This document shows positions 2,987-20,769 of a stretch of 20,822 nucleotides of DNA, one piece after another. A model generated the notes under the pieces. The model saw nothing but the letters and a program-made list of their open reading frames with translations, had not been told where the DNA came from and did not search any database. The translations under genes and the position numbers were made by a program. Numbering within the stretch: the stretch's first letter is position 1; each line of letters begins with the position of its first letter. The stretch covers positions 62,001 to 82,822 of IMG/VR virus record IMGVR_UViG_3300045999_010308. The stretch is one strand, 5' to 3'. The DNA is from an uncultured virus (IMG/VR IMGVR_UViG_3300045999_010308) (Duplodnaviria > Heunggongvirae > Uroviricota > Caudoviricetes).

Positions 2987-2999
2987 AATCTTGTTTTTC

Positions 3000-3082
3000 T
3001 GTGTTTTGGTTACTTTCTATTATGGATCGTTCTCCCAGTAATGTCAACTATCTGGGAGAATCTTTTCTGAACAAGTGTACTA
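3000..3082 (-). promoter_or_regulatory. Family B promoter/operator, copy 1
   Basis: TTGACA-N17-CATAAT; inverted repeat TTCTCCCAG...CTGGGAGAA straddling the -35. Confidence 0.8.
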
Positions 3083-3103
3083 CTGATAACTGATAACTAG
3101 AAA

Positions 3104-4229: not shown

Positions 4230-4313
4230 TGTGTTTTGTTTACTTTTCTATATTAGATCGTTCTCCCAATAAAGTCAAGTATATGGGAAAACTATTTTTG
4301 AGCATTTGTACTA
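4230..4313 (-). promoter_or_regulatory. Family B promoter/operator, copy 2
   Basis: TTGACT-N17-TAATAT; same ~80-bp frame (GTGTTTTGTTTAC...GATCGTTCTCCCA...TGGGA...TGAGCATTTGTAC on +). Confidence 0.8.
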
Positions 4314-4672
4314 CGTCTTTGTTTGTAACGTTGGTGTTGATCCTGTTTTCGTTTAGGATCGAGTTCTCGGTGTTCCAAGCAGTACCCAGATTTGTTTCGG
4401 GCATTAAGTGCCGTAAATTTACCCAAAACTAAGCAGGCATCACAATATTTAGTTTCAGGGATAATTGCTTCTGTAGAAAAGTTGATTCCTTTTTTTGCAA
4501 TTATCTGAGGAGGCTTATCACAGATTAAAGCTACTCTTGTCAAACCTATGCCCGATAAAGAGTAATCTTGTAGCTTAACAAGACTTAAGTTAGTGTCAAT
4601 GTTGTCGATTTTCTGAATAGAAGATTTTAAAACTTCAAAATCTTCCAATTCAAGAGATAAGATTAAGATCAT
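4292..4672 (-). CDS. Hypothetical protein with C-terminal Cys/His zinc-binding motif and basic helix; putative regulator
   Basis: Likely start MILIL at 4672; CDAC...GYCLEH followed by KRKQDQHQRYKQRR. Confidence 0.6.
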   Translation of the reverse strand: MILILSLELEDFEVLKSSIQKIDNIDTNLSLVKLQDYSLSGIGLTRVALICDKPPQIIAKKGINFSTEAIIPETKYCDACLVLGKFTALNARNKSGYCLEHRELDPKRKQDQHQRYKQRRSTNAQK

Positions 4673-5121: not shown

Positions 5122-5136
5122 GATTGTTACTTCTCC

Positions 5137-5217
5137 GTGTTTTGTTTACATTTCTATCATAGATCGTTCTCCCAGTAATGTCAATAAATTGGGAGAATCT
5201 TTTCTGAGCATTTGTAC
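5137..5217 (-). promoter_or_regulatory. Family B promoter/operator, copy 3
   Basis: TTGACA-N17-TATGAT with TTCTCCCA/TGGGAGAA inverted repeat. Confidence 0.8.
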
Positions 5218-5277
5218 CAATAAAAAACGCTTAACTAAGCTAAGTGTTTTTTATTGCTGACTAAGCGATAAGTGTAC

Positions 5278-6541: not shown

Positions 6542-6625
6542 TGTGTTTTGTTTACTCTTTTATATTAGATCATTCTCCCAATAAAGTCAAGTATATGGGT
6601 CAATCTTTTCTGAGCGTTTGTACTA
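6542..6625 (-). promoter_or_regulatory. Family B promoter/operator, copy 4
   Basis: TTGACT-N17-TAATAT; closely similar to 4230-4313. Confidence 0.8.
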
Positions 6626-6644
6626 AGTATATCTACTTGTTATC

Positions 6645-7080
6645 ATTGTAGATACATTGTAGATAGGGTGATCGACAACCGAAACCGTTACCCTGTAAAG
6701 GTTCTAGACTTTGTTGATAATGTCGATGTCTTATGGGAGGAGAAAAAGATAAAAGAATAAACCAGACTGGACAATAAAAAACTGTAGAGTAAAAAAAAGC
6801 AAACAAGGTCAACAGCAAGGCTGTTGGATTGTGATTCGATTGTTAATAAGGTTATTTACAATCGAAATCCTTATAGGGTATAGGTTTCAAGGTTTGTTTA
6901 TCTTGTCGACACTCTATACAGAGAGAGAAAAAATAGGGAGAGATAAACGAACTGGACAATAAGAAAAGGATAAAAAATCTTGACACAGGGAAATAGAGTA
7001 ACAATATAAACAAAGTCTAGAACCTATATATATCAATGCTTTTTATTGTTGATCACCTTATCTACAATCTATTTACAAAC
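6645..7080. repeat. Cluster of three ~80-bp iteron-like elements (6645-6728 +, 6838-6911 +, 6999-7080 -)
   Basis: Each has TTGT(A/T/C)(G/A/T)AT boxes in direct and inverted orientation around a GAAA..TTT core; homologous to 19842-20506. Confidence 0.7.
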
Positions 7081-7090
7081 CAACAAACTA

Positions 7091-7120
7091 TAAACCCCCT
7101 ATGAGTCCATAGGGGGTTTA
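7091..7120. terminator. Hairpin terminator downstream of antirepressor-like gene 1
   Basis: Perfect stem TAAACCCCCTATG-AGTC-CATAGGGGGTTTA. Confidence 0.65.
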
Positions 7121-7130
7121 TCTTGAATGT

Positions 7131-7169
7131 CGGGGTAAAGACCCTCGCTTTTAGCGACGGGAGTGTCAA
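7131..7169 (+). mobile_element. Possible IS200/IS605-family (tnpB) right-end remnant
   Basis: AAGACCCTCGCTTTTAGCGACGGGAGTGTCAA resembles the subterminal hairpin plus GGAGTGTCAA end of cyanobacterial IS605/IS607-type elements; no transposase present. Confidence 0.4.
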
Positions 7170-7185
7170 ATGGGTTTAGGTATTT

Positions 7186-7890
7186 TTACCGTTTTTTGTC
7201 GTTTCTCATAAGCATTCGACCGCCTCGCCATCCCCGTGCTTTTTCTCGTTCGGTTTCGAGGAGGTTAAATTTAGCTATATCGCGCTCTTTTTCGGCGTGT
7301 AATTCTTCGATCACTAGCCGCTTATAGTCAAGCATCGAGTTTTTACTGCTAAAGTCAGCGATCATAGTCTTTTGAGTTTTGATCAACTCCTCTAGTATTT
7401 GCTTCTCTTCGCTTAGTTTGACGATTTGGCTCTCAAGTTGCCTTACCTCTGTAATTGCCTCGCTCTTGACGCGAAAACCAGCTAATGTGTGAAGGAATAA
7501 TCGGACTCCTAGCTTAAGCACTTGAGAGGCTAACTCAGGATTATCCTTTGGCAACCACTTACAGATTAGGTCTTCTGGGATTAGATAAACCCCTTGCAAC
7601 CCGCCCTCTGTTTGAATTTGAGCCTGTTTTAGCAATCCTAATCCTAACCCCATTGTGTTACCCCCTTGTAACCCGCTCCCTGTTTGAATTTGAGGGTGAT
7701 TTGGAGATTCAGAAGTTACCCCCTTGCTATTTTCTTTAGATAGCCGGTTTAATCGCATGGTGATAGCGTTGGAGCTTTTCCCAGACATACGAGCATATCC
7801 TTTGATTGAGGCAAAGCTTTCACCGGTCTGAGTGTCGATAATTAGCTCGATGCCGTCGTGATCAAAACGTTGTAAAATTAGATCAGCCAT
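7186..7890 (-). CDS. Phage antirepressor-like DNA-binding protein (KilA-N/Bro-N-like N-terminus plus coiled coil), paralog 1
   Basis: LQRFDHDGIELIIDTQTGESFASIKGYARMSG...LIPEDLICKWL; paralogous to 19191-19715. Confidence 0.65.
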   Translation of the reverse strand: MADLILQRFDHDGIELIIDTQTGESFASIKGYARMSGKSSNAITMRLNRLSKENSKGVTSESPNHPQIQTGSGLQGGNTMGLGLGLLKQAQIQTEGGLQGVYLIPEDLICKWLPKDNPELASQVLKLGVRLFLHTLAGFRVKSEAITEVRQLESQIVKLSEEKQILEELIKTQKTMIADFSSKNSMLDYKRLVIEELHAEKERDIAKFNLLETEREKARGWRGGRMLMRNDKKR

Positions 7891-8014
7891 GTTAGCCTCT
7901 ACAGTAGGTTGACTTAGTTAGTCCCTCGCGTCAACGAGGGCATATTAATATTGTACTACATTAAATAATCAATTATTCCCCAATATAGAAAATTCTATAT
8001 TGGGGAATCTGGAC

Positions 8015-8133: not shown

Positions 8134-8415
8134 TTAATTAAATTTTTTGTACTCTTGTAGTATTATTTGGGTTGCCTCCTCAATTTGGGTTCCTTTTGAT
8201 AGCAGTTCAAGGACTTTAGCTAAAACTTGTCTGACTCGTTCTTTACCTATTCCTAATTCTGCTGTAGTTGATGCCACTTTAAAGCGATAGTTCCGATGAC
8301 GGGAAGTAACAGGCACTGGGTCAAGATTATTGTTTTTTGCCCACACCAGATAGATGTAGGCTTGTCTAGAAGTTATCACTTTTGTTTTTCTAGTCTTAAT
8401 TTTTGAAAACATCAA
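8134..8415 (-). CDS. Small HTH protein (sigma region 4-like), last gene of the operon; possible Aca-like regulator
   Basis: ASTTAELGIGKERVRQVLAKV helix-turn-helix pattern. Confidence 0.55.
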   Translation of the reverse strand: MMFSKIKTRKTKVITSRQAYIYLVWAKNNNLDPVPVTSRHRNYRFKVASTTAELGIGKERVRQVLAKVLELLSKGTQIEEATQIILQEYKKFN

Positions 8416-8947
8416 TCATCTGGTATTCTTTGATTAAATCAAGGGAATATACACTCCAAATATGAGCGTCTAAAAAGTTAATTCCCGCATTTTTTGCCGC
8501 TAGTTTATCTTCTTCTCGATCTCCTACCATTAAAATATCGATAGGTTCTTTGGCGAAGGCTCTTAAAGCAGCAAAAATCATCCCAGGATTAGGCTTTCTG
8601 AATTGCTCAATAAGATCGGGGTACAGTTCATCAATTTGCACGCAGGAACATTTTCTCACGCGAAAACATTCCCGTCCTTTAAAATCAGGGCAAAAATAAA
8701 TGCAAGAAAGCCGGGGAAATATTTCTAAAGTTTTTAGCTGTTCTTCAATTGCACTTTTTAAGGATTTATGTCCAGCAGCTACTCCGCCCTGATTAGTGAT
8801 TCCTATCATCGTCCATCCCTCTTGATGGTAAATTTCCATAGCTTTTATCGCCCCTTCGATTGGTTCCTGATCGTTTGGATCTTCGATGAATTTTCCGTTG
8901 GTAGATTGGCGGATCGTGCCATCAAGATCGAGCAATAAAGCTTTCAT
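8396..8947 (-). CDS. HAD-superfamily IIIA phosphatase (GmhB/histidinol-phosphatase/polynucleotide 3'-phosphatase-like)
   Basis: DLDGT motif I, ITNQGG motif II, RKPNPGM motif III, MVGDREED motif IV. Confidence 0.9.
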   Translation of the reverse strand: MKALLLDLDGTIRQSTNGKFIEDPNDQEPIEGAIKAMEIYHQEGWTMIGITNQGGVAAGHKSLKSAIEEQLKTLEIFPRLSCIYFCPDFKGRECFRVRKCSCVQIDELYPDLIEQFRKPNPGMIFAALRAFAKEPIDILMVGDREEDKLAAKNAGINFLDAHIWSVYSLDLIKEYQMIDVFKN

Positions 8948-8955
8948 TTTTTCAA

Positions 8956-8998
8956 ATTTTCCCCTACTTAAGCTTCAGGGCATCCCTAATAGGGATTA
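8956..8998 (-). repeat. 43-bp leader repeat containing a CRISPR-repeat hairpin (copy 2)
   Basis: Minus strand TAATCCCTATTAGGGATGCCCTGAAGCTTAAGTAGGGGAAAAT; differs from 9291-9334 by 2 substitutions and 1 indel. Confidence 0.85.
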
Positions 8999-9040
8999 AG
9001 CGAATAATCAAGACAACTGATAACTGACAACCAATTCAAC

Positions 9041-9277
9041 CTATCTAGTGTTGCATCCCAAAATTCCATAAGGATCGCCGTCTTCCTCCACATCTATACT
9101 ATTCCATCGCTGAATAATTTCTTCAGCAAAAGCCTTAGTTAGCAGGGAACCTGGACGATAATATGATCTTCTGTAATGGGCTACTTCTGCGGCAGTTAAA
9201 ATTTCAGAAGTAGTAGCCCGGGAGTTGATGTAGTTAGCAAATTCTTGAGCAGTCATTACCTTTTTGGAATTAGCCAT
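9041..9277 (-). CDS. Small hypothetical protein (78 aa) bracketed by CRISPR-like hairpins; anti-CRISPR candidate
   Basis: ORF with purine-rich leader; function inferred from context only. Confidence 0.65.
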   Translation of the reverse strand: MANSKKVMTAQEFANYINSRATTSEILTAAEVAHYRRSYYRPGSLLTKAFAEEIIQRWNSIDVEEDGDPYGILGCNTR

Positions 9278-9290
9278 TGCCTTCTTGATG

Positions 9291-9404
9291 ATTTTCCCCC
9301 TACTTAAGCTTCGGGGTATCCCTAATAGGGATTAGATAAAGCGCACGCAACTACGACTATAGTTCATAGTTTCAATTCCTAATAGGAGTTCTTTGTGCAG
9401 CTAC
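9291..9404 (-). CRISPR. Solitary CRISPR-like unit: repeat (9369-9404), spacer (9335-9368), degenerate repeat/leader (9291-9334); no cas genes
   Basis: GTAGCTGCACAAAGAACTCCTATTAGGAATTGAAAC (36 nt, GT...ATTGAAAC, hairpin TCCT-ATT-AGGA), then TATGAACTATAGTCGTAGTTGCGTGCGCTTTATC, then TAATCCCTATTAGGGAT. Confidence 0.7.
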
Positions 9405-9470
9405 CTTAAGTAAATCACTTAATTCTTGATAGGTGTTGGCGAAGCGTGCCGCTTTAGGCACTGGCACGCT
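9405..9470 (-). promoter_or_regulatory. Family C promoter/operator, copy 1 (upstream of the CRISPR-like unit)
   Basis: TCTTGATAGGTGTTGGCGAAG shared with the 9968-9988 copy; inverted repeat AGCGTGCC-N12-GGCACGCT. Confidence 0.6.
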
Positions 9471-9921
9471 GAGAAAAGCGGTAGCATACTTCTTGATAGG
9501 AGATGCTCTGGATTTCCCCTTTGACATTTTCAAATACCCAATAATCGCCATCGCTATCTTGATAAATAGCATTAGCATTTAAATCAATAGGAATCTCAAA
9601 AGTTGCAGATGTTTCGCCTTTTTTACCTTCAAATTTTCGACTTACAGGCTCGATAAACTTCTTAGTGAATCCACCGTGCTTAATATCTTTTTCGGGTGAG
9701 ATTTTCGCTACCCATGCTCTCCAAGCGCGGCGAGGAGTTTCTAAAATAAGAGTGCGAGTTTTAGGCAATCTTTTAAAAGCCACGATATTATTTTTTTGAA
9801 GCTGTTCAATTGCGGCTTCTACCGCTAAGATTTTTTCAATTAGTTTACGCTGGTTTTGCCGTCCTCTACTGATTGCTAGTTGAGCGTTTAGTCGAGCCAG
9901 TTTAGATTGTAGGTTATTCAT
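9454..9921 (-). CDS. Hypothetical protein (155 aa), N-terminus shared with 5278-6531
   Basis: ORF behind a family C promoter. Confidence 0.8.
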   Translation of the reverse strand: MNNLQSKLARLNAQLAISRGRQNQRKLIEKILAVEAAIEQLQKNNIVAFKRLPKTRTLILETPRRAWRAWVAKISPEKDIKHGGFTKKFIEPVSRKFEGKKGETSATFEIPIDLNANAIYQDSDGDYWVFENVKGEIQSISYQEVCYRFSQRASA

Positions 9922-9933
9922 GATCTGCGATGC

Positions 9934-10012
9934 GTGTTTTGCTTACATTTCTAATATAGATCGATCCTCTTGATAAGTGTTGGCGAAGTGTGACACTTGA
10001 TAAACTGCCACT
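9934..10012 (-). promoter_or_regulatory. Family C promoter/operator, copy 2 (with family B-type -10/leader)
   Basis: GATC-TATATT-AGAAATG -10 context as in family B; no TTGACA, but GTGAC-N12-GCCAC inverted repeat upstream. Confidence 0.65.
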
Positions 10013-10039
10013 AGAATAACTAAGAATCTATTTAAAGTA

Positions 10040-10225
10040 ATAAGCACTAGACCAAGTGCGTGCGTCAGCCGACTACTATTTCAAATCGGTTACTGGACTT
10101 ACACCAGCAAGCTTAAAACGACTCATTAACTAGTCTCACCAGCCGACTACTATTTCAAGTCGGTTACTGATCTGCCCAGTAGCTTATGGAGGCTCTAATT
10201 AATGGATGCACTCGGTTTCGCACCT
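10040..10225 (-). ncRNA. Putative structured ncRNA with two tandem ~74-nt units
   Basis: 30-bp direct repeats 10066-10095 and 10140-10169 (29/30 identical) forming a CCGA(C/T)T-loop-AGTCGG hairpin; own promoter upstream; no ORF; terminal hairpin GCACT-TGGTCT-AGTGC. Confidence 0.55.
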
Positions 10226-10292
10226 TATATTTTAAATATATCATGATAATTTTCAGATAGTTGGCAAAGTGTGACAGTTTATCAAGTGTCAC
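10226..10292 (-). promoter_or_regulatory. Family C promoter/operator, copy 3
   Basis: GTTGGCAAAGTGTGAC-N12-GTCAC; TATATT/TAAAAT -10 candidates. Confidence 0.6.
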
Positions 10293-10312
10293 TGTAGATA
10301 CTTTTGTACTGA

Positions 10313-11362
10313 TTATTCTGTAAACCACTGTAAATAAATCTGATGCGCTATCTGTGCAGTCATTACAGGAGGCACGCTCATTCCTATTAAATACTTTGGA
10401 TCGATATTTTTAAAGTTGTAATCGAGTGGATAGCTACCAATTAGGCAAGTTGCTTTATTTGATATATAATTATTTAAGTTACTGTGTATTAGCTTCTTGT
10501 TGCTTGCTATTACTGTTAAAGGCGTTTGATTTTCTAAGCAAACAAAAGTAAATCCAATGCTGCCGATTTTGCCATTTAAACTTTTTTTATGTGTTTGTAA
10601 CACACCTGTTGATGTTATAGGGTTTTTTAAAAGTTTTTTTATATAATTATGTTTAATTGCTTCTCCAATTTCATTTGTTCCAAATTCACCAAACAAAATT
10701 GGCTCTTCATTAAAATTTAACTCTAGATTTTTAAAGTTTAAATCATTCCTTTGACAAATAAAGAACACTCGCTCACGTTTTTAAGGCACTCCCATGCTTG
10801 CGGCGTTCAAAAGAAATAACTGTACTTTATATCCTGCTTTTTCAAATTCATCTTTTATTCGCTTTACATACGCTTTGGCATTACCTTGAATAATTCCTTT
10901 AACATTTTCAGCGATAACGACCTTTGGCTGTAGTTTTTTTGCTAATCGTATGTAATCAAAGAAAAGGTCATCAAGCCGCTGTTTAGCCTGACCTTCCCTA
11001 AATACTTTTTCTTTCCCCCAGTCTTTTTCTCTATTTCCTGCTATGCTAAATGAAGAGCAGGGAGGTGAGCCGTCTAAAATATCTAGGTTATAAAGTTCAT
11101 TAGGAAAGATTGTACGATCAGCAAAATCTCTTATATCTTCAATAAATAAATATTTAGGATTGTGGTTAACTTTATATACATCAGCTACCTGCGAGTCTAT
11201 TTCAACACCTCCTAAATGGTCAAAACCTGCTAACTTGTAACCCATAGTCGAACCACCGCCACAGATAAAAGTACCAAATACTTTTAACCCATGTTTTTCA
11301 ATTCCAGGTGCTGGGTATCCATCTGACAAATTCCACTTATATGCAAATTTATGTTTAGTCAT
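10313..11362 (-). pseudogene. C5 DNA cytosine methyltransferase interrupted by a single in-frame TAA (10781-10783)
   Basis: Motifs FICGGG (I), GSPPCSSFS (IV), ENV (VI), GVP*KRERVFF (VIII; normally GVPQxRxR), IGMSVPP (X); both ORF halves are in the same frame. Confidence 0.88.
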
Positions 11363-12059
11363 TACCTAAAAGCTTCCATACCGCTTGTTCGGGTGTCAAT
11401 GCTATTTTACTTAATTGTTCTTTTACTTGCCAGTATTCATTTTCTGTATAACTTAATTTAATTATCATTTGCCCATCCATACCCTCGATGTCAATTTCTT
11501 TGTTTTTTCCCGAAAAATTATCTGTTATATTTGATTCAAAATTATCAGAATTATCTAAATTATCTGAAGTATTTAAAGCTTCTAGGATTGAATTTAAATC
11601 GCCGATTACTCCTAAATTCTCCCCTTCTTCATCAAGGTATTCAGCCTGGCTAATTAGTAAGTCAGTATCAAAAAGCTTTAATTCCGTAGCAAGGTCAAGC
11701 CCTGCCCCGTGAATCGTAGAATGGTTGTGAATAATCGAGTATTTTATAGCTTGAGCCTCATTTTTAGCGTAAACTCCTACTAAAACAGGAACCATCCACT
11801 CCCCATCGTTGTCAATATCTATACCTCTAGGTCGATCTATTTTGCGCTTTTTAATTGCTAATAGTGCGGCACACCGATCATGACCCTCAGTAATCCCCCC
11901 TTTTCCGCCGTTTAAGCTTGGATCGTAGCCAATTGGATCTTTAAATCCCAACTCCAATATTGAAGCTATTGTGTTTTCAGTGGCGTGTTTTTTGGAATTA
12001 CCCTTTAGTTGTTTTAGGTCGCAAAGCCGTCGATACTCAATTTCTAATTTATCTGTCAT
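11355..12059 (-). CDS. ParB/Srx-like N-terminal domain protein (phage DNA-modification associated)
   Basis: NSKKH...IASILELGFKDPI...ITEGHDRCAAL pattern; overlaps the MTase start; likely start MTDKLEI. Confidence 0.7.
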   Translation of the reverse strand: MTDKLEIEYRRLCDLKQLKGNSKKHATENTIASILELGFKDPIGYDPSLNGGKGGITEGHDRCAALLAIKKRKIDRPRGIDIDNDGEWMVPVLVGVYAKNEAQAIKYSIIHNHSTIHGAGLDLATELKLFDTDLLISQAEYLDEEGENLGVIGDLNSILEALNTSDNLDNSDNFESNITDNFSGKNKEIDIEGMDGQMIIKLSYTENEYWQVKEQLSKIALTPEQAVWKLLGND

Positions 12060-12100: not shown

Positions 12101-12865
12101 ATGGTTGTCACTAATCGAGGCAGAAAGCGTACATACTCTATTCATGAAGAGGTAATCGAGTTTACCAAATATCCTATCTGGGAACAGCAAGAACTAGAAA
12201 CCCCTGATTGGTTTGAAAGATTTCAGATTTTTTACCTTCCTATTCCTTCAGGCTATCGCACTTTAAATCGAGCCTACGGTAACTGCGGGGAAGCTTCTGG
12301 GGAACAGATAGAGAAGACTAAATTTAAACGAGCTAAAACTGTCCCCGATGACTGGCAGTTAGCGCATAAAAACTATCGATGGGAAGAGCGGGCGAAAGCC
12401 TATTGGCTTTTAAAGATTCAAGAGCAGCAAGCTTACACTGATAGCATTTTACGAGAAATCCGAGAGAAGACTCTAAAGATTACTCTAAAAAACCTCGAAA
12501 AGATTGAACAGATGACTAATTATCCGATTTCTCGCCGTCGGATAGATTCTGTAGATGAATCGGGCCGGCCGATTGCCATAACAATTGAACCTAACGGAAA
12601 TTGGAATCATAGAGACGCAGTGACTATGGCTAAAACGTTGACTGATACCTTTGAAAAAGTTTTAGGTTTTGACACCATCGAGTACGCAATTAATATTGTT
12701 CAAAAGCACGGATTAGCTGTTATTGACCCTGACGGAAAACTTATAGGACATTCTGGCATAGAGAAACTCGACGACGGACTGACCTCGATTATTCGTGATA
12801 GTGCAGAATTTGATGATGATGTAATGATTCCCACTAGGATAAGCGATGACGATGAAAGCGAGTAA
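12101..12865 (+). CDS. Putative terminase small subunit
   Basis: Overlaps and precedes terL; WEQQELET..WF..F...W...YRWEERAKAY pattern seen in TerS-position proteins. Confidence 0.55.
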   Translation: MVVTNRGRKRTYSIHEEVIEFTKYPIWEQQELETPDWFERFQIFYLPIPSGYRTLNRAYGNCGEASGEQIEKTKFKRAKTVPDDWQLAHKNYRWEERAKAYWLLKIQEQQAYTDSILREIREKTLKITLKNLEKIEQMTNYPISRRRIDSVDESGRPIAITIEPNGNWNHRDAVTMAKTLTDTFEKVLGFDTIEYAINIVQKHGLAVIDPDGKLIGHSGIEKLDDGLTSIIRDSAEFDDDVMIPTRISDDDESE

Positions 12866-14501
12866 ATTATCATTAAAAAATCTCTCAAAGATAAAAACAG
12901 CGACCGAAAAATATCGACTTGTTAACACCAAAGAAGAAATTGTTTTTCCTCAATTACAAGAGGGAAAACAAGCTTTATTTGGAAAAATTGACGCTGATGT
13001 AATTATATTCGGTGGAGCCGCAGGAGCAGGAAAGACCAGAGCCTTATTAACTGATTTTGTTCGTCAAGAATATATTGACAATCCTGATTACCGGGCTGTC
13101 ATGTTTCGCCGGACTTATCCTGAATTTACTCAAGCTGGGGGATTAGTAGATGAAAGTCGTAAAATCTATTATCCTATCAAGGGTACTTTTATAGAAAAGC
13201 CTAGTCTTGAATGGCGGTTTCCTAGTGGTGCTAGGGTATCTTTTAGGCATTTACAGCATGAAAAAACCGTGCATATTTATCAAGGCTCTCAGATTACTAG
13301 GATCGGTTTTGACGAACTAACCCATTTTACGCGGGAACAGTTTTTCTATCTTCTCTCTAGAAACCGGTCTGTATCAGGAATTAAACCCTCTGTTAGAGCA
13401 ACCTGTAACCCCGACGCTGATTCATGGGTAGCTAGTTTTATCTCTTGGTGGATCAACCCAAAAGACGGTTATGCTATTGAAGAAAGGTCGGGAATAGTTC
13501 GATACTTTATTAGGCAGGGAGATACGGTTTATTGGGCTGATAATAAACAAGAATTAATTGATAAATTTAGTCTTAAAGATAAGCTTTTTGAAATGATTCC
13601 TAATGATATTCAAAAAAAGTTTTTATTAAATGAAGAAATAAGCATTAAACCAGAAGACTTAATCAAGAGTTTTACTTTTATTCCTGCCACGATTTTTGAT
13701 AATAGAGAACTGATAAAAGTTAACCCTACCTACTTAGCTAACCTTTATTCACTTCATCAAGTTGAACGAGAAAGACTTCTTAGAGGTAATTGGAAGATTA
13801 AATACGAAGCTGGTACAGTATTTGATCGGACTTGGTTTGAGATTCTCGATAAAGTACCCGATGATTGGAAGTTAATAGGTAAAGTGAGGTTCTGGGATTT
13901 AGCGGCAACTGCTAAAGAAAATGCTGAAAACTATCACTGTTACACGAGTGGGACTCTTGTTTATAAATACCAAAGAATTAAGAATACACTACCAGATTTA
14001 ACTGAAATCAAGGAATTTGCCTATGTAATTGCTGACAATATCTGTGAGCAGAAAAAGGTAGGGGAAGTTGAGTTAATGCTTAAAAATACTGCTGAATTGG
14101 ACGGGAAAACTGTAGCTGTAAGATGGGAGCAGGAAGGGGGGTCAAGCGGTAAATTTGTTGAGAATACCATTACTAATGTAATTAAAGAAAATCATCCGAA
14201 TCATGATATTAGAGCGATAGCACCTCAAGGGGATAAACTAACGCGGGCTTTACCCGTAGCCACGGCAGCTAGTCGGGGACAAATCTTTATCTTAAGAGAT
14301 GGGACATGGAACACTCGGTTTTTAAATGCCTGCCAGGGTTTTGATGGTAGCAAAAAAACACCCCCGACTAATGACATTGTAGATAGTCTATCAGGGGCAT
14401 TTTATTCCCTTGAAAATGAGTTTCAGGGACATGAAAAGGTTATTGGCACGATTGTTACTTCTGCTCCTGTTAATCGGTTTAGAAGCGGTTTTAGGGGTTA
14501 G
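12846..14501 (+). CDS. terL: Terminase large subunit (Terminase_6-type ATPase plus RNase H-like nuclease)
   Basis: Walker A GGAAGAGKT, Walker B IGFDELTHF, RATCNP coupling motif, FWDLAAT and NDIVDSLSGA nuclease motifs. Confidence 0.93.
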   Translation: MTMKASKLSLKNLSKIKTATEKYRLVNTKEEIVFPQLQEGKQALFGKIDADVIIFGGAAGAGKTRALLTDFVRQEYIDNPDYRAVMFRRTYPEFTQAGGLVDESRKIYYPIKGTFIEKPSLEWRFPSGARVSFRHLQHEKTVHIYQGSQITRIGFDELTHFTREQFFYLLSRNRSVSGIKPSVRATCNPDADSWVASFISWWINPKDGYAIEERSGIVRYFIRQGDTVYWADNKQELIDKFSLKDKLFEMIPNDIQKKFLLNEEISIKPEDLIKSFTFIPATIFDNRELIKVNPTYLANLYSLHQVERERLLRGNWKIKYEAGTVFDRTWFEILDKVPDDWKLIGKVRFWDLAATAKENAENYHCYTSGTLVYKYQRIKNTLPDLTEIKEFAYVIADNICEQKKVGEVELMLKNTAELDGKTVAVRWEQEGGSSGKFVENTITNVIKENHPNHDIRAIAPQGDKLTRALPVATAASRGQIFILRDGTWNTRFLNACQGFDGSKKTPPTNDIVDSLSGAFYSLENEFQGHEKVIGTIVTSAPVNRFRSGFRG

Positions 14502-16673: not shown

Positions 16674-16759
16674 TGTGCTTTTGCTTGCTTGATTTTATCT
16701 TGCATCATTCTCCCAGTAAAATTAACTATCTGGGAGAATAATTTCTGAACGTTTGTACT
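16674..16759 (-). promoter_or_regulatory. Family B promoter/operator, copy 5 (degenerate -35/-10, intact operator)
   Basis: ATTCTCCCAG-TAAAATTAACTAT-CTGGGAGAAT...TTTCTGAACGTTTGTACT. Confidence 0.65.
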
Positions 16760-16773
16760 GCTTGATAACTAAT

Positions 16774-18745: not shown

Positions 18746-18818
18746 GCGGGGTGAGTGAAATGGTTTCCACATAGGCCTCATAAGCCTAAAACACTAGGTT
18801 CGACTCCTAGACCCCACA
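18746..18818 (+). tRNA. tRNA with CAT anticodon (elongator Met or Ile2)
   Basis: Acceptor GCGGGGT/ACCCCAC (one C:A mismatch), D arm GTG/CAC, anticodon arm TAGGC-CTCATAA-GCCTA, T arm CTAGG-TTCGACT-CCTAG; CCA not encoded. Confidence 0.88.
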
Positions 18819-19116: not shown

Positions 19117-19190
19117 TTAAATATGGTATAATATTGATACGCCCCCGCGTTAACGGGGGACTAATCACAATTACTATTACAGAGTAAATC

Positions 19191-19715
19191 ATGACTAATC
19201 CTAGTTTACAGCGTTTTGATCACGATGGTATTGAATTAATTATCAATACCGAGACTGGTGAAAGCTTTGCCTCAATTAGTGGATATGCCCGGATGTCAGG
19301 GAAAATACCTTCAACTATTTCTCGCCGTTTGACTATGAGGGGTTTGCGTGAAAAGGGTCTTGATCAAGCTCAAATCGAGACAGCAGGCGGATTACAAGGT
19401 GTTGCATTGATCCCAGAAGATTTAATCTGTCAGTGGTTAATTAAAGACAATCACGAACTAGCCCTAAAAGTAATGCAGTTGGGCGTTCGCTTATTCCTTC
19501 ACACCTTAGCCGGTTTTCAGGTCAAAAGTGAGGCAATTGAGACTAACAAGCAACTTGAGAGCCAAGTCGCTGAATTGACTGCCAAAATCGACAAATTGGA
19601 TTATCGAGAAGTTGACTATATCGATGAAATCCTCGGCTTAAAAGACCGAATTAAAAAGCTTGAGAGCGAGAACTCTACTCTAGAGGAACAAATCGAGTTA
19701 ATGGGGGGATATTAG
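19191..19715 (+). CDS. Phage antirepressor-like DNA-binding protein, paralog 2
   Basis: LQRFDHDGIELIINTETGESFASISGYARMSG...; paralog of 7186-7890 with a different coiled-coil tail. Confidence 0.65.
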   Translation: MTNPSLQRFDHDGIELIINTETGESFASISGYARMSGKIPSTISRRLTMRGLREKGLDQAQIETAGGLQGVALIPEDLICQWLIKDNHELALKVMQLGVRLFLHTLAGFQVKSEAIETNKQLESQVAELTAKIDKLDYREVDYIDEILGLKDRIKKLESENSTLEEQIELMGGY

Positions 19716-19779
19716 GTGAAAAGCAGTAAATAAGGTTACTTACTGCTAAAATAAAAAACAATTGATAACTGATAAAGCT

Positions 19780-19808
19780 AACCCCTGTAATCTCTACAGG
19801 GGTTTTTT
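19780..19808 (+). terminator. Intrinsic terminator
   Basis: AACCCCTGTA-ATCTC-TACAGGGGTT followed by a T-tract. Confidence 0.75.
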
Positions 19809-19841
19809 GTTGTCTAATGTTCGGAGATTGGCTAGTTGTTA

Positions 19842-20506
19842 GATTGTTAATAGATTGTAAACAAAGCTATTAACAATGGAATCCTTGATATATATAGATT
19901 TCAGACTTTGTTTATATTGTTAGCCTTGTTCCCGTGTCAGAATTTTTTATGTTTTTATTGCTGACCTCGATTAATTAGATTGTTAGTTTGTAAATAGATT
20001 GTAAATAAGAGTATTTACAAAGATAGAAAAGATGAAAGTATTGATATATATAGCTTTCATTATTTTTGTACTTCTTTGTTGATATTGTTGATGATTACCC
20101 CGTGTGTATTTTTTGCCTTATTGTTGAGTCTGTTTCTTTTTATTGTTGACCTTGTTTGTTTTCTTTATCTTTTTTCTCTCTATAGAGCATCAACAATATC
20201 TACAAAGCCTAAAACCTAGTCGGGGTAAGGGTTTTGATTGTAGATAACCTTATTAACAATTGAATTACAAAAAGAACAAATTAGAGATAAAGCACTTCTC
20301 GCTTTTAAAATTCTCTGATTAGCCGAAAATACGGCATTTTGTCAATAGAGTCAGTTTTGCGTTTAATCACTTTTATTGCTGACTTTGCTGTATATCTTCT
20401 TTTCTCTCTTTTCCTCTATAAGGCATCGACAATATCTACAAAGTCTAAAGCCTATACTCAGCAAGGGTTTCGATTGTCGATAACCTTATTAACAATCTAT
20501 CTACAA
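19842..20506. repeat. Cluster of four ~80-bp iteron-like elements (19842-19922 +, 19986-20093 +, 20188-20261 -, 20424-20506 -)
   Basis: The reverse complement of 20424-20506 aligns along its length with 6645-6728; same TTGTnnAT box layout. Confidence 0.7.
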
Positions 20507-20769
20507 CCTAACAACCGCTCTGTAGTATTTGTAGTATATGTAATACGGATAGATAAAAAAAATACCGCTCCCTCGTAGGGCGGTAATCCAAGTCAATCTT
20601 TAAAAAAATTCTCTCATAGTCTTAATAGAATTGTCAAGACAAAAAAATAAACGCGCTCCCGGGTGCGGTATAAAAGAGCGCGGCGGTGTAAATATGTTTT
20701 CCTTTTAATTATATCTCAAAAAAGAAAATTCAAGATATAATAATACAAGAAACAGTACGCACCTCATCG

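Follow-up and report, generated by a model that had tools for sequence, protein, structure and literature searches.

A structured minus-strand phage RNA with two stretches complementary to a Microcystis CRISPR repeat

A Racr is an RNA anti-CRISPR (CRISPR, short palindromic repeats that are clustered and regularly interspaced) that a virus encodes as a solitary repeat unit, according to Camara-Wilpert et al. 2023 (PMC10651486). The locus described here belongs to an uncultured virus of the Caudoviricetes (IMG/VR record IMGVR_UViG_3300045999_010308); the window, meaning the whole 20,822-nucleotide (nt) stretch that was analyzed, is the final 20.8 kb of this 82.8-kb record. At 10040-10232 it encodes on the minus strand a structured noncoding RNA whose mode of action would be closest to that of an RNA anti-CRISPR; yet it is no Racr, being transcribed from the strand antisense to the repeat concerned. 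That repeat is DR5, one of seven Microcystis CRISPR repeat types (DR1, DR5 and DR7 among them) listed in Table 3 of PMC4428289. Like Racrs, the product is a small phage noncoding RNA related to a host repeat and located in an accessory region; being virus-encoded and stand-alone, with its own promoter, is likewise a Racr-type feature. Unlike Racrs, which copy the repeat in sense and are bound by Cas proteins, the phage RNA is antisense and only partial, with two 13-bp stretches, and its DR5 likeness is embedded in a 190-nt multi-helix fold. On the minus strand, the longest sense match to any of the seven repeat types is 7 nt.

Two further groups of RNAs invite comparison. In trans-activating CRISPR RNAs (tracrRNAs) and in the phage RNAs rAcrIIA1 and vsgRNA (bioRxiv 10.64898/2026.06.03.729762, 10.64898/2026.06.01.729453), a repeat-complementary stretch is followed by structured hairpins, as it is here, and the phage versions subvert CRISPR; they concern Cas9 systems and lie beside, or copy, the effector's guide. 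Unlike a tracrRNA, the RNA described here relates to a repeat of a type III-B locus and is adjoined by no effector or array; no cas gene was found in the 20.8-kb window, and the Cas12-like genes of the phage are ~25 kb from the RNA. Typical anti-repeats are longer than the 13-bp helices formed here. With the type III antitoxins ToxI, CptI and TenpI and the pseudo-ToxI of phage PhiTE, the locus shares tandem structured repeats of variable copy number, and the PhiTE copy can reportedly act as counter-defence. ToxI, CptI and TenpI consist of short equivalent repeats (~34-45 nt) that are cut apart by a linked toxin, whereas the units here are unequal (74 and 90 nt), joined by inter-unit helices, different from each other outside a 30-nt hairpin block and without a linked toxin. 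No endoribonuclease toxin gene was found immediately downstream of the RNA, and the downstream gene varies among 24 loci. The locus is probably neither a tracrRNA nor a type III antitoxin, and it is not a CRISPR array or a miniature inverted-repeat transposable element (MITE).

The RNA gene: signals, fold, expression and distribution

The RNA is the product of a self-contained accessory gene, acts in trans, is ~190 nt long and has its own promoter/operator. That this folded, conserved gene, present in RNA libraries, is real can be stated with high confidence. The gene and its promoter are as follows.

10040-10232, minus strand: structured noncoding RNA gene of ~193 nt, identified by consensus fold, pair counts, a covariance-model score of 219.6 bits and RNA-library contigs
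10240-10292, minus strand: promoter/operator module with a promoter-like site, near-invariant in 22 distinct flanks

A reading of the window made from sequence alone (the sequence-only reading) had placed a "family C" promoter upstream of an RNA without an open reading frame (ORF). A promoter-like TTGCCA-16-CATGAT site is indeed present at 10267-10240 on the minus strand; the module comprises the palindrome GTGACAGTTTATCAAGTGTCAC (10271-10292), TTGCCA (10267-10262), 16 nt and CATGAT (10245-10240). Other copies of the promoter family lie at 9968-10011 and 9424-9467 (three copies aligned), and the inverted 22-nt arms that flank the locus are promoter/operator copies. The RNA would start ~7 nt past the -10 hexamer and end with the closing helix and a U-rich tail. 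The small hairpin expected at the end of the region corresponds to a terminator-like hairpin with a T-rich tail on the minus strand (10059-10044): the 3ʹ strand of the closing helix, P1, can alternatively form this local hairpin (10044-10059), followed by TTATTACTTT, and the two most divergent relatives have a strong hairpin and T-run on the minus strand only. A promoter-like site on the plus strand of the window (9990-10017) is not conserved in relatives. ORFs overlapping the region are all at most 54 amino acids (aa) long and none covers both repeats; an indel of 1 nt that occurs among relatives disrupts the 54-aa ORF. The proposal of an RNA that has its own promoter, lacks ORFs and forms conserved hairpins is thus supported, for the minus strand. 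A search of Rfam 15 covariance models against both strands of the window returned nothing in 10000-10300; a tRNA at 18746-18818 was the window's sole match over threshold. ARAGORN found no tRNA-like gene at the RNA locus.

The hairpins arise from a pair of 30-nt repeats at 10066-10095 (CAGCCGACTACTATTTCAAATCGGTTACTG, plus strand) and 10140-10169, 74 nt apart from start to start and with one A/G difference; the repeats earlier written as CAGTAACCGA(C/T)TTGAAATAGTAGTCGGCTG are the reverse complements of these plus-strand copies. On the minus strand the difference is a C-G versus a U-G stem pair, and among 13 distinct relatives this pair is CG in 8 and UG in 5 for one hairpin and UG in 11 and CG in 2 for the other. 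The repeat search and these counts uphold both the 74-nt period and the pairing-neutral nature of the single difference. The 42-44-nt linkers are non-random, as had been proposed, with GTG, TTAAT..GAG and TAAGCT..CTGG common to both. Within the 82.8-kb record, the 21-nt repeat core occurs at one locus only.

An RNAalifold consensus of 13 distinct two-unit sequences on the minus strand contains 67 pairs, arranged as a 19-pair closing helix, P1, around two homologous domains, A (P2, P2b, P3, P4) and B (P5, P6, P7). Both domains are built from a closing stem, a short hairpin and a hairpin of 6 bp whose loop, UGAAAUAGU, is invariant; these tip hairpins, P4 and P7, are the cores of the 30-nt repeats. 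In 5ʹ to 3ʹ order along the RNA, the main strands are the following.

10208-10228, minus strand: 5ʹ strand of P1, paired with 10040-10059
10195-10204, minus strand: 5ʹ strand of P2, CAUUAAUUAG, in the first linker, paired with 10124-10133
10140-10169, minus strand: 30-nt repeat, 5ʹ copy in the RNA, forming hairpin P4 and part of P3
10124-10133, minus strand: 3ʹ strand of P2, CUAGUUAAUG, in the inter-repeat linker
10117-10122, minus strand: 5ʹ strand of P5, paired with 10060-10066 and closing domain B
10066-10095, minus strand: 30-nt repeat, 3ʹ copy in the RNA, forming hairpin P7 and part of P6
10040-10059, minus strand: 3ʹ strand of P1, paired with 10208-10228

The P4 stem joins 10158-10162 to 10144-10148 around a 9-nt loop, and the P7 stem joins 10084-10089 to 10069-10074 around an identical loop. 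P3 (10165-10170 with 10176-10181) and P6 (10090-10096 with 10104-10110) take in the first bases of the 5ʹ and 3ʹ repeat copies, respectively. Pairing takes place between the two linkers and between linkers and flanks; because P2 joins both linkers, these are helix strands rather than spacers. What stands of the multi-unit RNA proposed earlier is therefore a structured, hairpin-bearing RNA with a single fold, and not a string of independent 74-nt units.

Across the 871 cells of the alignment (13 distinct sequences), 98.5% are standard pairs. P1 (19 pairs, 96.8% of cells paired) has six one-sided changes that keep pairing and one two-sided change, P2 (10 pairs, 97.7%) has three pairs with a one-sided U-A/U-G change, and P5 (6 pairs, 100%) has two one-sided changes with pairing kept. 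Over the whole fold, 4 pairs changed on both sides and 13 on one side with pairing kept (wobble-compatible), so that structural covariation, named beforehand as a check, is found as compensatory and wobble-compatible changes across these sequences. None of 500 shuffles reached the observed values for four of five measures, and 10 of 500 did so for further pair types; slid controls were 23-43% paired. In one lineage (L064), the P7 stem CCGAUU/AGUCGG is swapped for CUAUCU/AGAUAG, with three compensatory pairs and an unchanged loop. The mirrored plus-strand fold pairs in 86.5% of cells versus 98.5% on the minus strand, a difference due to the many G-U pairs of the minus-strand fold. As a single sequence, the RNA folds moderately better than its shuffles do (z -2.47; 3 of 200 as good), and the three-unit form reaches z -4.5.

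The locus is also present in RNA libraries. Twenty metatranscriptome rows from nine studies contain part of the stretch, and four runs from four studies were compared over 9000-11500; the RNA gene is covered in all four. In run X7, contig depth is 126 and 233 over 10066-10168 versus 5-20 on neighbouring phage genes, and in run X2 the summed depth is 39.5 at the RNA gene versus ~5. In run X1, whose contigs are 100% identical to the window, one contig (9400-10219) ends 14 nt before the inferred start and takes in both the RNA gene and a 155-aa ORF, which does not prove a single transcript. One X7 contig of a divergent type extends to 10294 and then continues into unlike sequence. The interval 10344-11015 is uncovered in all four runs, but the relatives differ there, and its lack of coverage is hence not evidence of silence. 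The three-unit form occurs in RNA run X6 and the L064-type compensatory stem in X7. These contigs support transcription of the RNA gene but do not prove it, DNA carry-over being possible.

Scanned with an exact pattern, IMG/VR yielded 24 contigs that carry the locus: 17 have two units at 74 nt, 3 have three units (spacing 74 and 90), one end-cut contig has two matches at 90 nt, and 3 have a single match (1 cut by the contig end, 2 with a variant other unit). A further 7 contigs, belonging to the same phage group, came from a scan of metagenomes. After removal of duplicates, 16 distinct RNA sequences remained, of which 13 have two units and 3 have three. The extra unit is a duplication of 90 nt holding one whole domain, and the RNA is then ~280 nt long. 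Unit number thus varies between 2 and 3 among homologues, a point that the sequence-only reading had marked for checking. The promoter-side flank is near-invariant in all 22 distinct flank sequences, and the opposite flank and the neighbour genes are mosaic. When a covariance model was run over 80 loci around large-terminase (TerL) relatives, the RNA turned up only in some members of the 98% and ~85% TerL clades and not in the 44-63% clades; these loci and the whole genome yielded no distant homologue and no second copy. Since the RNA is found in only part of the close TerL clades, the gene is an accessory cassette, absent from part of its close kin. No neighbour gene is consistent: a family containing the 155-aa ORF adjoins the RNA at 6 of 24 loci, in either orientation. 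This ORF has its own promoter module and gave no match in Pfam, PHROGs or PADLOC and no lead in the ESM Atlas. GenBank phages had no match to the RNA locus, and the TerL relatives there are at most 44% identical.

Wider pattern searches returned little beyond this phage group. A looser loop pattern added, among viral contigs, only four identical chance matches in coding sequence (L028, L033, L034, L045), which were rejected; applied to metagenomes, the tandem-loop pattern recovered this phage group again, along with chance matches and one real CRISPR array (L080). Among the genomes of 185,579 species, the loop motif in tandem was found only in an unrelated CRISPR array of one Candidatus Fischerbacteria metagenome-assembled genome (MAG). 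That array (L080, L085) has 28 repeats, and 14 nt (TTGAAATAGTAGTC) of its 37-nt repeat also occur in the loop and stem of the phage RNA's hairpin; the likeness was judged a coincidence because the search had been seeded with 12 of those 14 bases.

Complementarity to DR5 and a possible anti-repeat role

The host of the phage is very probably Microcystis, because other genes of the window have short 75-90% matches to MaMV phages of Microcystis and because a host spacer matches the phage. The latter appears in a run X7 contig, in which a phage stretch (~11205-11242) is flanked on both sides by the Microcystis repeat DR7; it is a host CRISPR spacer transcript directed against the phage methylase gene.

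The sequence-only reading had pointed to a complementarity between the first linker and a Microcystis repeat ending in TAATTAATGGAAAC, and had called it weak. In a comparison with the seven Microcystis repeat types, the match proved real, the repeat being DR5, and together with a second site it exceeds chance. DR5 alone of the seven types stands out, with an 11-nt exact antisense match and two 13-bp helices that tolerate G-U pairs.

10194-10206, minus strand: anti-repeat site 1, UCCAUUAAUUAGA, complementary to DR5 nt 20-32 over 13 bp with one G-U
10104-10116, minus strand: anti-repeat site 2, UUAAGCUUGCUGG, complementary to DR5 nt 12-24 over 13 bp with G-U pairs

The predicted duplex energies with DR5 are -18.2 and -15.8 kcal/mol, the former for site 2, whose duplex extends via a bulge. 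In dinucleotide shuffles scored against seven types in two orientations, two 13-bp helices to the same repeat occurred in 0 of 400 and a sum of 24 in 1 of 400. Minus-strand transcripts of the whole 82.8-kb genome form four helices of at least 13 bp with DR5, two of them in the RNA gene. Co-folding with DR5 gains -4.8 kcal/mol net of refolding (ddG) and forms 17 intermolecular pairs, a better result than with any other of the seven types. In an alignment to the DR5 reverse complement, unit A shares 18 of 22 positions and unit B 10 of 11, on account of which the likeness looks like the mark of a common origin. The 74-nt period equals one DR5 repeat plus spacer (spacers are 31-48 nt). Comparisons beyond the two sites were negative: the 22-nt DR5 core had no match in viral contigs, 12-mers of the seven repeat types occurred in the 80 relative loci only as scattered 12-13-mers, mainly in a DR1-like hairpin, and the RNA showed nothing beyond a 10-bp palindrome against the phage's own array or solitary repeat.

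PMC4428289 reports no cas genes next to DR5. Plasmid p1 of Microcystis aeruginosa NIES-2481 (NZ_CP025929.1) carries 42 DR5 copies, two of them single-base variants, in an array interrupted by two inserts of ~1.2-1.3 kb. These copies lie a few kb from cmr3, cmr4, cas10/cmr2 and cas1, and DR5 is therefore a type III-B repeat.

The reading preferred here is that the RNA is an anti-repeat RNA that pairs with DR5 transcripts and acts as an anti-defence against host CRISPR, with a probability of roughly 35%. Each domain would have kept a stretch resembling the DR5 reverse complement, and the two anti-repeat sites (three in some relatives) would pair with precursor CRISPR RNA (pre-crRNA) from DR5 arrays. 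The pairing would span the repeat hairpin and the expected Cas6 cleavage site, and an abundant phage RNA might in this way block or misdirect crRNA maturation. The cassette itself probably originated as an inverted, duplicated piece of a DR5-type array. The fuller proposal must be put tentatively, at odds well short of even: this would be the first antisense ("anti-repeat") RNA anti-CRISPR, in which a piece of a III-B array was captured in inverted orientation, duplicated and turned into a stable, highly expressed scaffold that shuts down crRNA production. Such a mechanism would be distinct from protein anti-CRISPRs (Acrs) and from the repeat-mimicking Racrs, and a full-text literature search found, in the portions of papers it reached, no description of a phage antisense repeat RNA.

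Several observations weigh against an anti-repeat role. The sites are only 13 bp long, AT-rich and G-U containing, and 37 of 400 shuffles form a single 13-bp helix with some repeat type, so that one such helix is no rarity. P2 and P6 partly bury both sites, and the predicted net gain from binding is small; the sites are also invariant, with no co-variation with DR5. None of the 39 ordinary-length spacers of the NIES-2481 DR5 array matches the phage, and its spacers gave only chance matches of 12-17 nt to the phage and all relative loci. The model assigns no function to the best-conserved elements of the RNA, its two identical hairpin loops. Few lineages contribute to the covariation: of the four double changes, three belong to the one L064 stem swap. 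Five of the one-sided changes would be wobble pairs on the plus strand instead, where the promoter-like site at 9990-10017 may be active. The RNA data are assembled contigs that give no strand, no ends and only rough depth.

Competing explanations

The main rival is a protein decoy or scaffold, in which the hairpins with identical UGAAAUAGU loops would bind an RNA-binding protein encoded by host or phage, such as a defence nuclease sequestered in this way; the DR5 likeness would then be a relic of the origin of the cassette, or chance. It is a serious, if doubtful, possibility. The hairpins are the most conserved elements of the RNA, and in L064 three pairs of the stem are swapped with the loop untouched, so shape and loop are what is kept. 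A decoy would also suit the varying number of hairpin-bearing domains (2-3), the high depth in RNA libraries and the location in a mosaic accessory region with methylases and a polynucleotide-kinase-phosphatase-like gene. No partner was found, however, and no neighbour is constant, the 155-aa ORF family being present at 6 of 24 loci; the loop has no match beyond 6-7 nt to the seven Microcystis repeat types, and two independent complementarities to one host repeat are left unexplained.

An RNA resembling a tracrRNA or single guide is improbable. The anti-repeats and P2 would here mimic a repeat:anti-repeat duplex and load or hijack a Cas12-type effector of phage or host. Two phage proteins that match Cas12u2/Cas12f models flank a CRISPR-like array, and phage RNAs that copy whole Cas9 guides are reported in 2026 preprints (bioRxiv 10.64898/2026.06.03.729762, 10.64898/2026.06.01.729453). 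The RNA gene lies ~25 kb from the Cas12-like genes, however, with no second copy nearby, and its complementarity to the phage's own array is confined to a 10-bp palindromic stretch. DR5, moreover, is linked to type III-B genes, and type III-B is not known to use a tracrRNA.

Three further explanations are very unlikely. The first, suggested by the sequence-only reading, is a type III toxin-antitoxin mimic (pseudo-ToxI), whose units would be cut out and neutralize a host endoribonuclease toxin. Tandem hairpin-bearing repeats of variable copy number in a phage fit this idea, and the repeat expansion of PhiTE pseudo-ToxI is said to resemble the variable unit number seen here. The suggestion found no support: the 74- and 90-nt units are non-equivalent and are joined by inter-unit helices into a single closed fold, a linked toxin-like gene was not found, the neighbours vary and include an ORF (155 aa) without a Pfam, PHROGs or PADLOC match, and the tandem loop motif occurs in species' genomes only in the unrelated Fischerbacteria array.

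The second is a sense CRISPR mimic on the plus strand, in the form of a Racr or of a mini-array whose degenerate repeats resemble DR5 and whose "spacer" is repeated. The plus strand carries the DR5-like sequences TAATTAATGGA and AGCAAGCTTAA and a promoter-like site (9990-10017), and the period would fit a DR5 repeat with its spacer. The identity to DR5 is partial, though, and lacks the 3ʹ end GAAAC; the plus-strand site is unconserved, whereas the minus-strand module is conserved in relatives; pairing favours the minus strand (98.5% versus 86.5%); and the hairpins standing in for "spacers" would all be identical and would lack targets elsewhere among viral contigs. A CRISPR mini-array in general was rejected, its "spacers" being conserved over 16 distinct variants, homologous to each other and part of P2 and P5.

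The third is a cis-acting leader or attenuator of the downstream gene. The X1 contig that spans the RNA gene and the 155-aa ORF would agree with such a role, but a contig over two genes does not amount to one transcript; a terminator-like hairpin ends the RNA, and what lies downstream is a gene that varies between relatives and carries a promoter module of its own.

Least credible of all is that the locus is a DNA-level site (a packaging or replication signal, or inverted repeats that bind protein), a MITE or a decayed coding duplication: the terminase gene ~2.6 kb away and the inverted 22-nt arms would suit such sites, but 13 one-sided changes are G-U compatible on one strand only, unlike DNA duplex sites, two hairpins in one phage have different stems and the same loop, the cassette is missing from close kin and hence not essential for packaging, the single locus in the 82.8-kb genome has no dispersed copies and its arms are promoter/operator copies, on which ground a MITE was rejected, and no ORF is present, a 1-nt indel occurring among relatives.

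Other elements of the phage and significance of the RNA

The phage carries additional CRISPR-related elements. A solitary DR1-like (type I-D) repeat, ..AAGAACTCCTATTAGGAATTGAAAC, lies at 9395-9362 on the minus strand, ~600 nt from the RNA gene and directly downstream of the family-C promoter module at 9424-9467. Next come 35 nt of spacer-like sequence and a degenerate repeat, AATCCCTATTAGGGATACCCC. As a whole, the unit (9293-9395) resembles a Racr or mini-array and probably corresponds to the "CRISPR-like unit" of the sequence-only reading, which had suggested its co-regulation with the RNA; shared promoter-family sequence is the sole basis for that suggestion. Two 42-nt copies, 93% identical, lie between small minus-strand genes at 8957-8998 and 9293-9334 and contain CCCTAATAGGGAT, of which 13 nt are shared with DR1; a joint in run X2 (9334 back to 9000) suggests a variable copy number of the cassette that holds them.

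Farther away, at genome position ~44470-44860 (L091:4470-4860) on the minus strand, is a phage-borne array of six repeats like GAAGCAATTAAGCTTAAGCCTTATTAGGGGTTGAAAC, near Microcystis DR1, with five spacers of 33-37 nt. It is flanked by proteins of 629 aa (L091:4952-6841, minus) and 561 aa (L091:2261-3946, minus), which match PADLOC Cas12u2/Cas12f models with E values of 1e-166 and 1e-126 and the Pfam families OrfB_IS605 and Cas12f1-like_TNB. The array and the Cas12-like pair may represent either a type V-U-like system of the phage or a pair of TnpB elements.

The window otherwise holds phage genes, among them the large terminase (12846-14501), ~2.6 kb from the RNA locus, and helix-turn-helix (HTH) and PadR regulators. 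A C5 DNA methylase on the minus strand is split into two ORFs (10313-10768 and 10781-11362; 193 and 151 aa), a split common to the window phage and one relative (L022); most relatives have a single ORF of 348-357 aa. In the same accessory region as the RNA gene, a 183-aa HAD-family protein (8396-8947, minus) matches polynucleotide kinase 3ʹ-phosphatase (PF08645, phrog_415) and may have an RNA-repair function. Five 87-nt repeats (2999-3085, 4230-4316, 5136-5222, 6542-6628 and 16677-16763), with 66-87% identity to the reference copy, lie upstream of minus-strand genes; with their inner palindrome TCTCCCA..TGGGAGA, they are probably a further promoter/operator family. Long inverted duplications relate 6646-7907 to 19174-20532, with arms of 108-174 nt that are 70-78% complementary, and take in parts of 234-aa and 174-aa ORFs and AT-rich repeats.

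Whether or not the proposed mechanism is right, the locus defines a structured RNA family that is present in lake RNA and has undergone domain duplication. Its clean on/off distribution among close phages makes its function testable by comparison of natural variants. The DR1-like solitary repeat, the six-repeat array and the two Cas12-like genes make the phage a compact case of CRISPR-centred conflict. Known RNA counter-defence works by mimicry, through Racrs, viral guide mimics and pseudo-antitoxins; pairing with host repeat transcripts would, if true, be a new principle. It would also provide a way into the type III-B immunity of Microcystis, the chief bloom-forming organism of fresh water, where bloom dynamics are shaped by resistance to phages.

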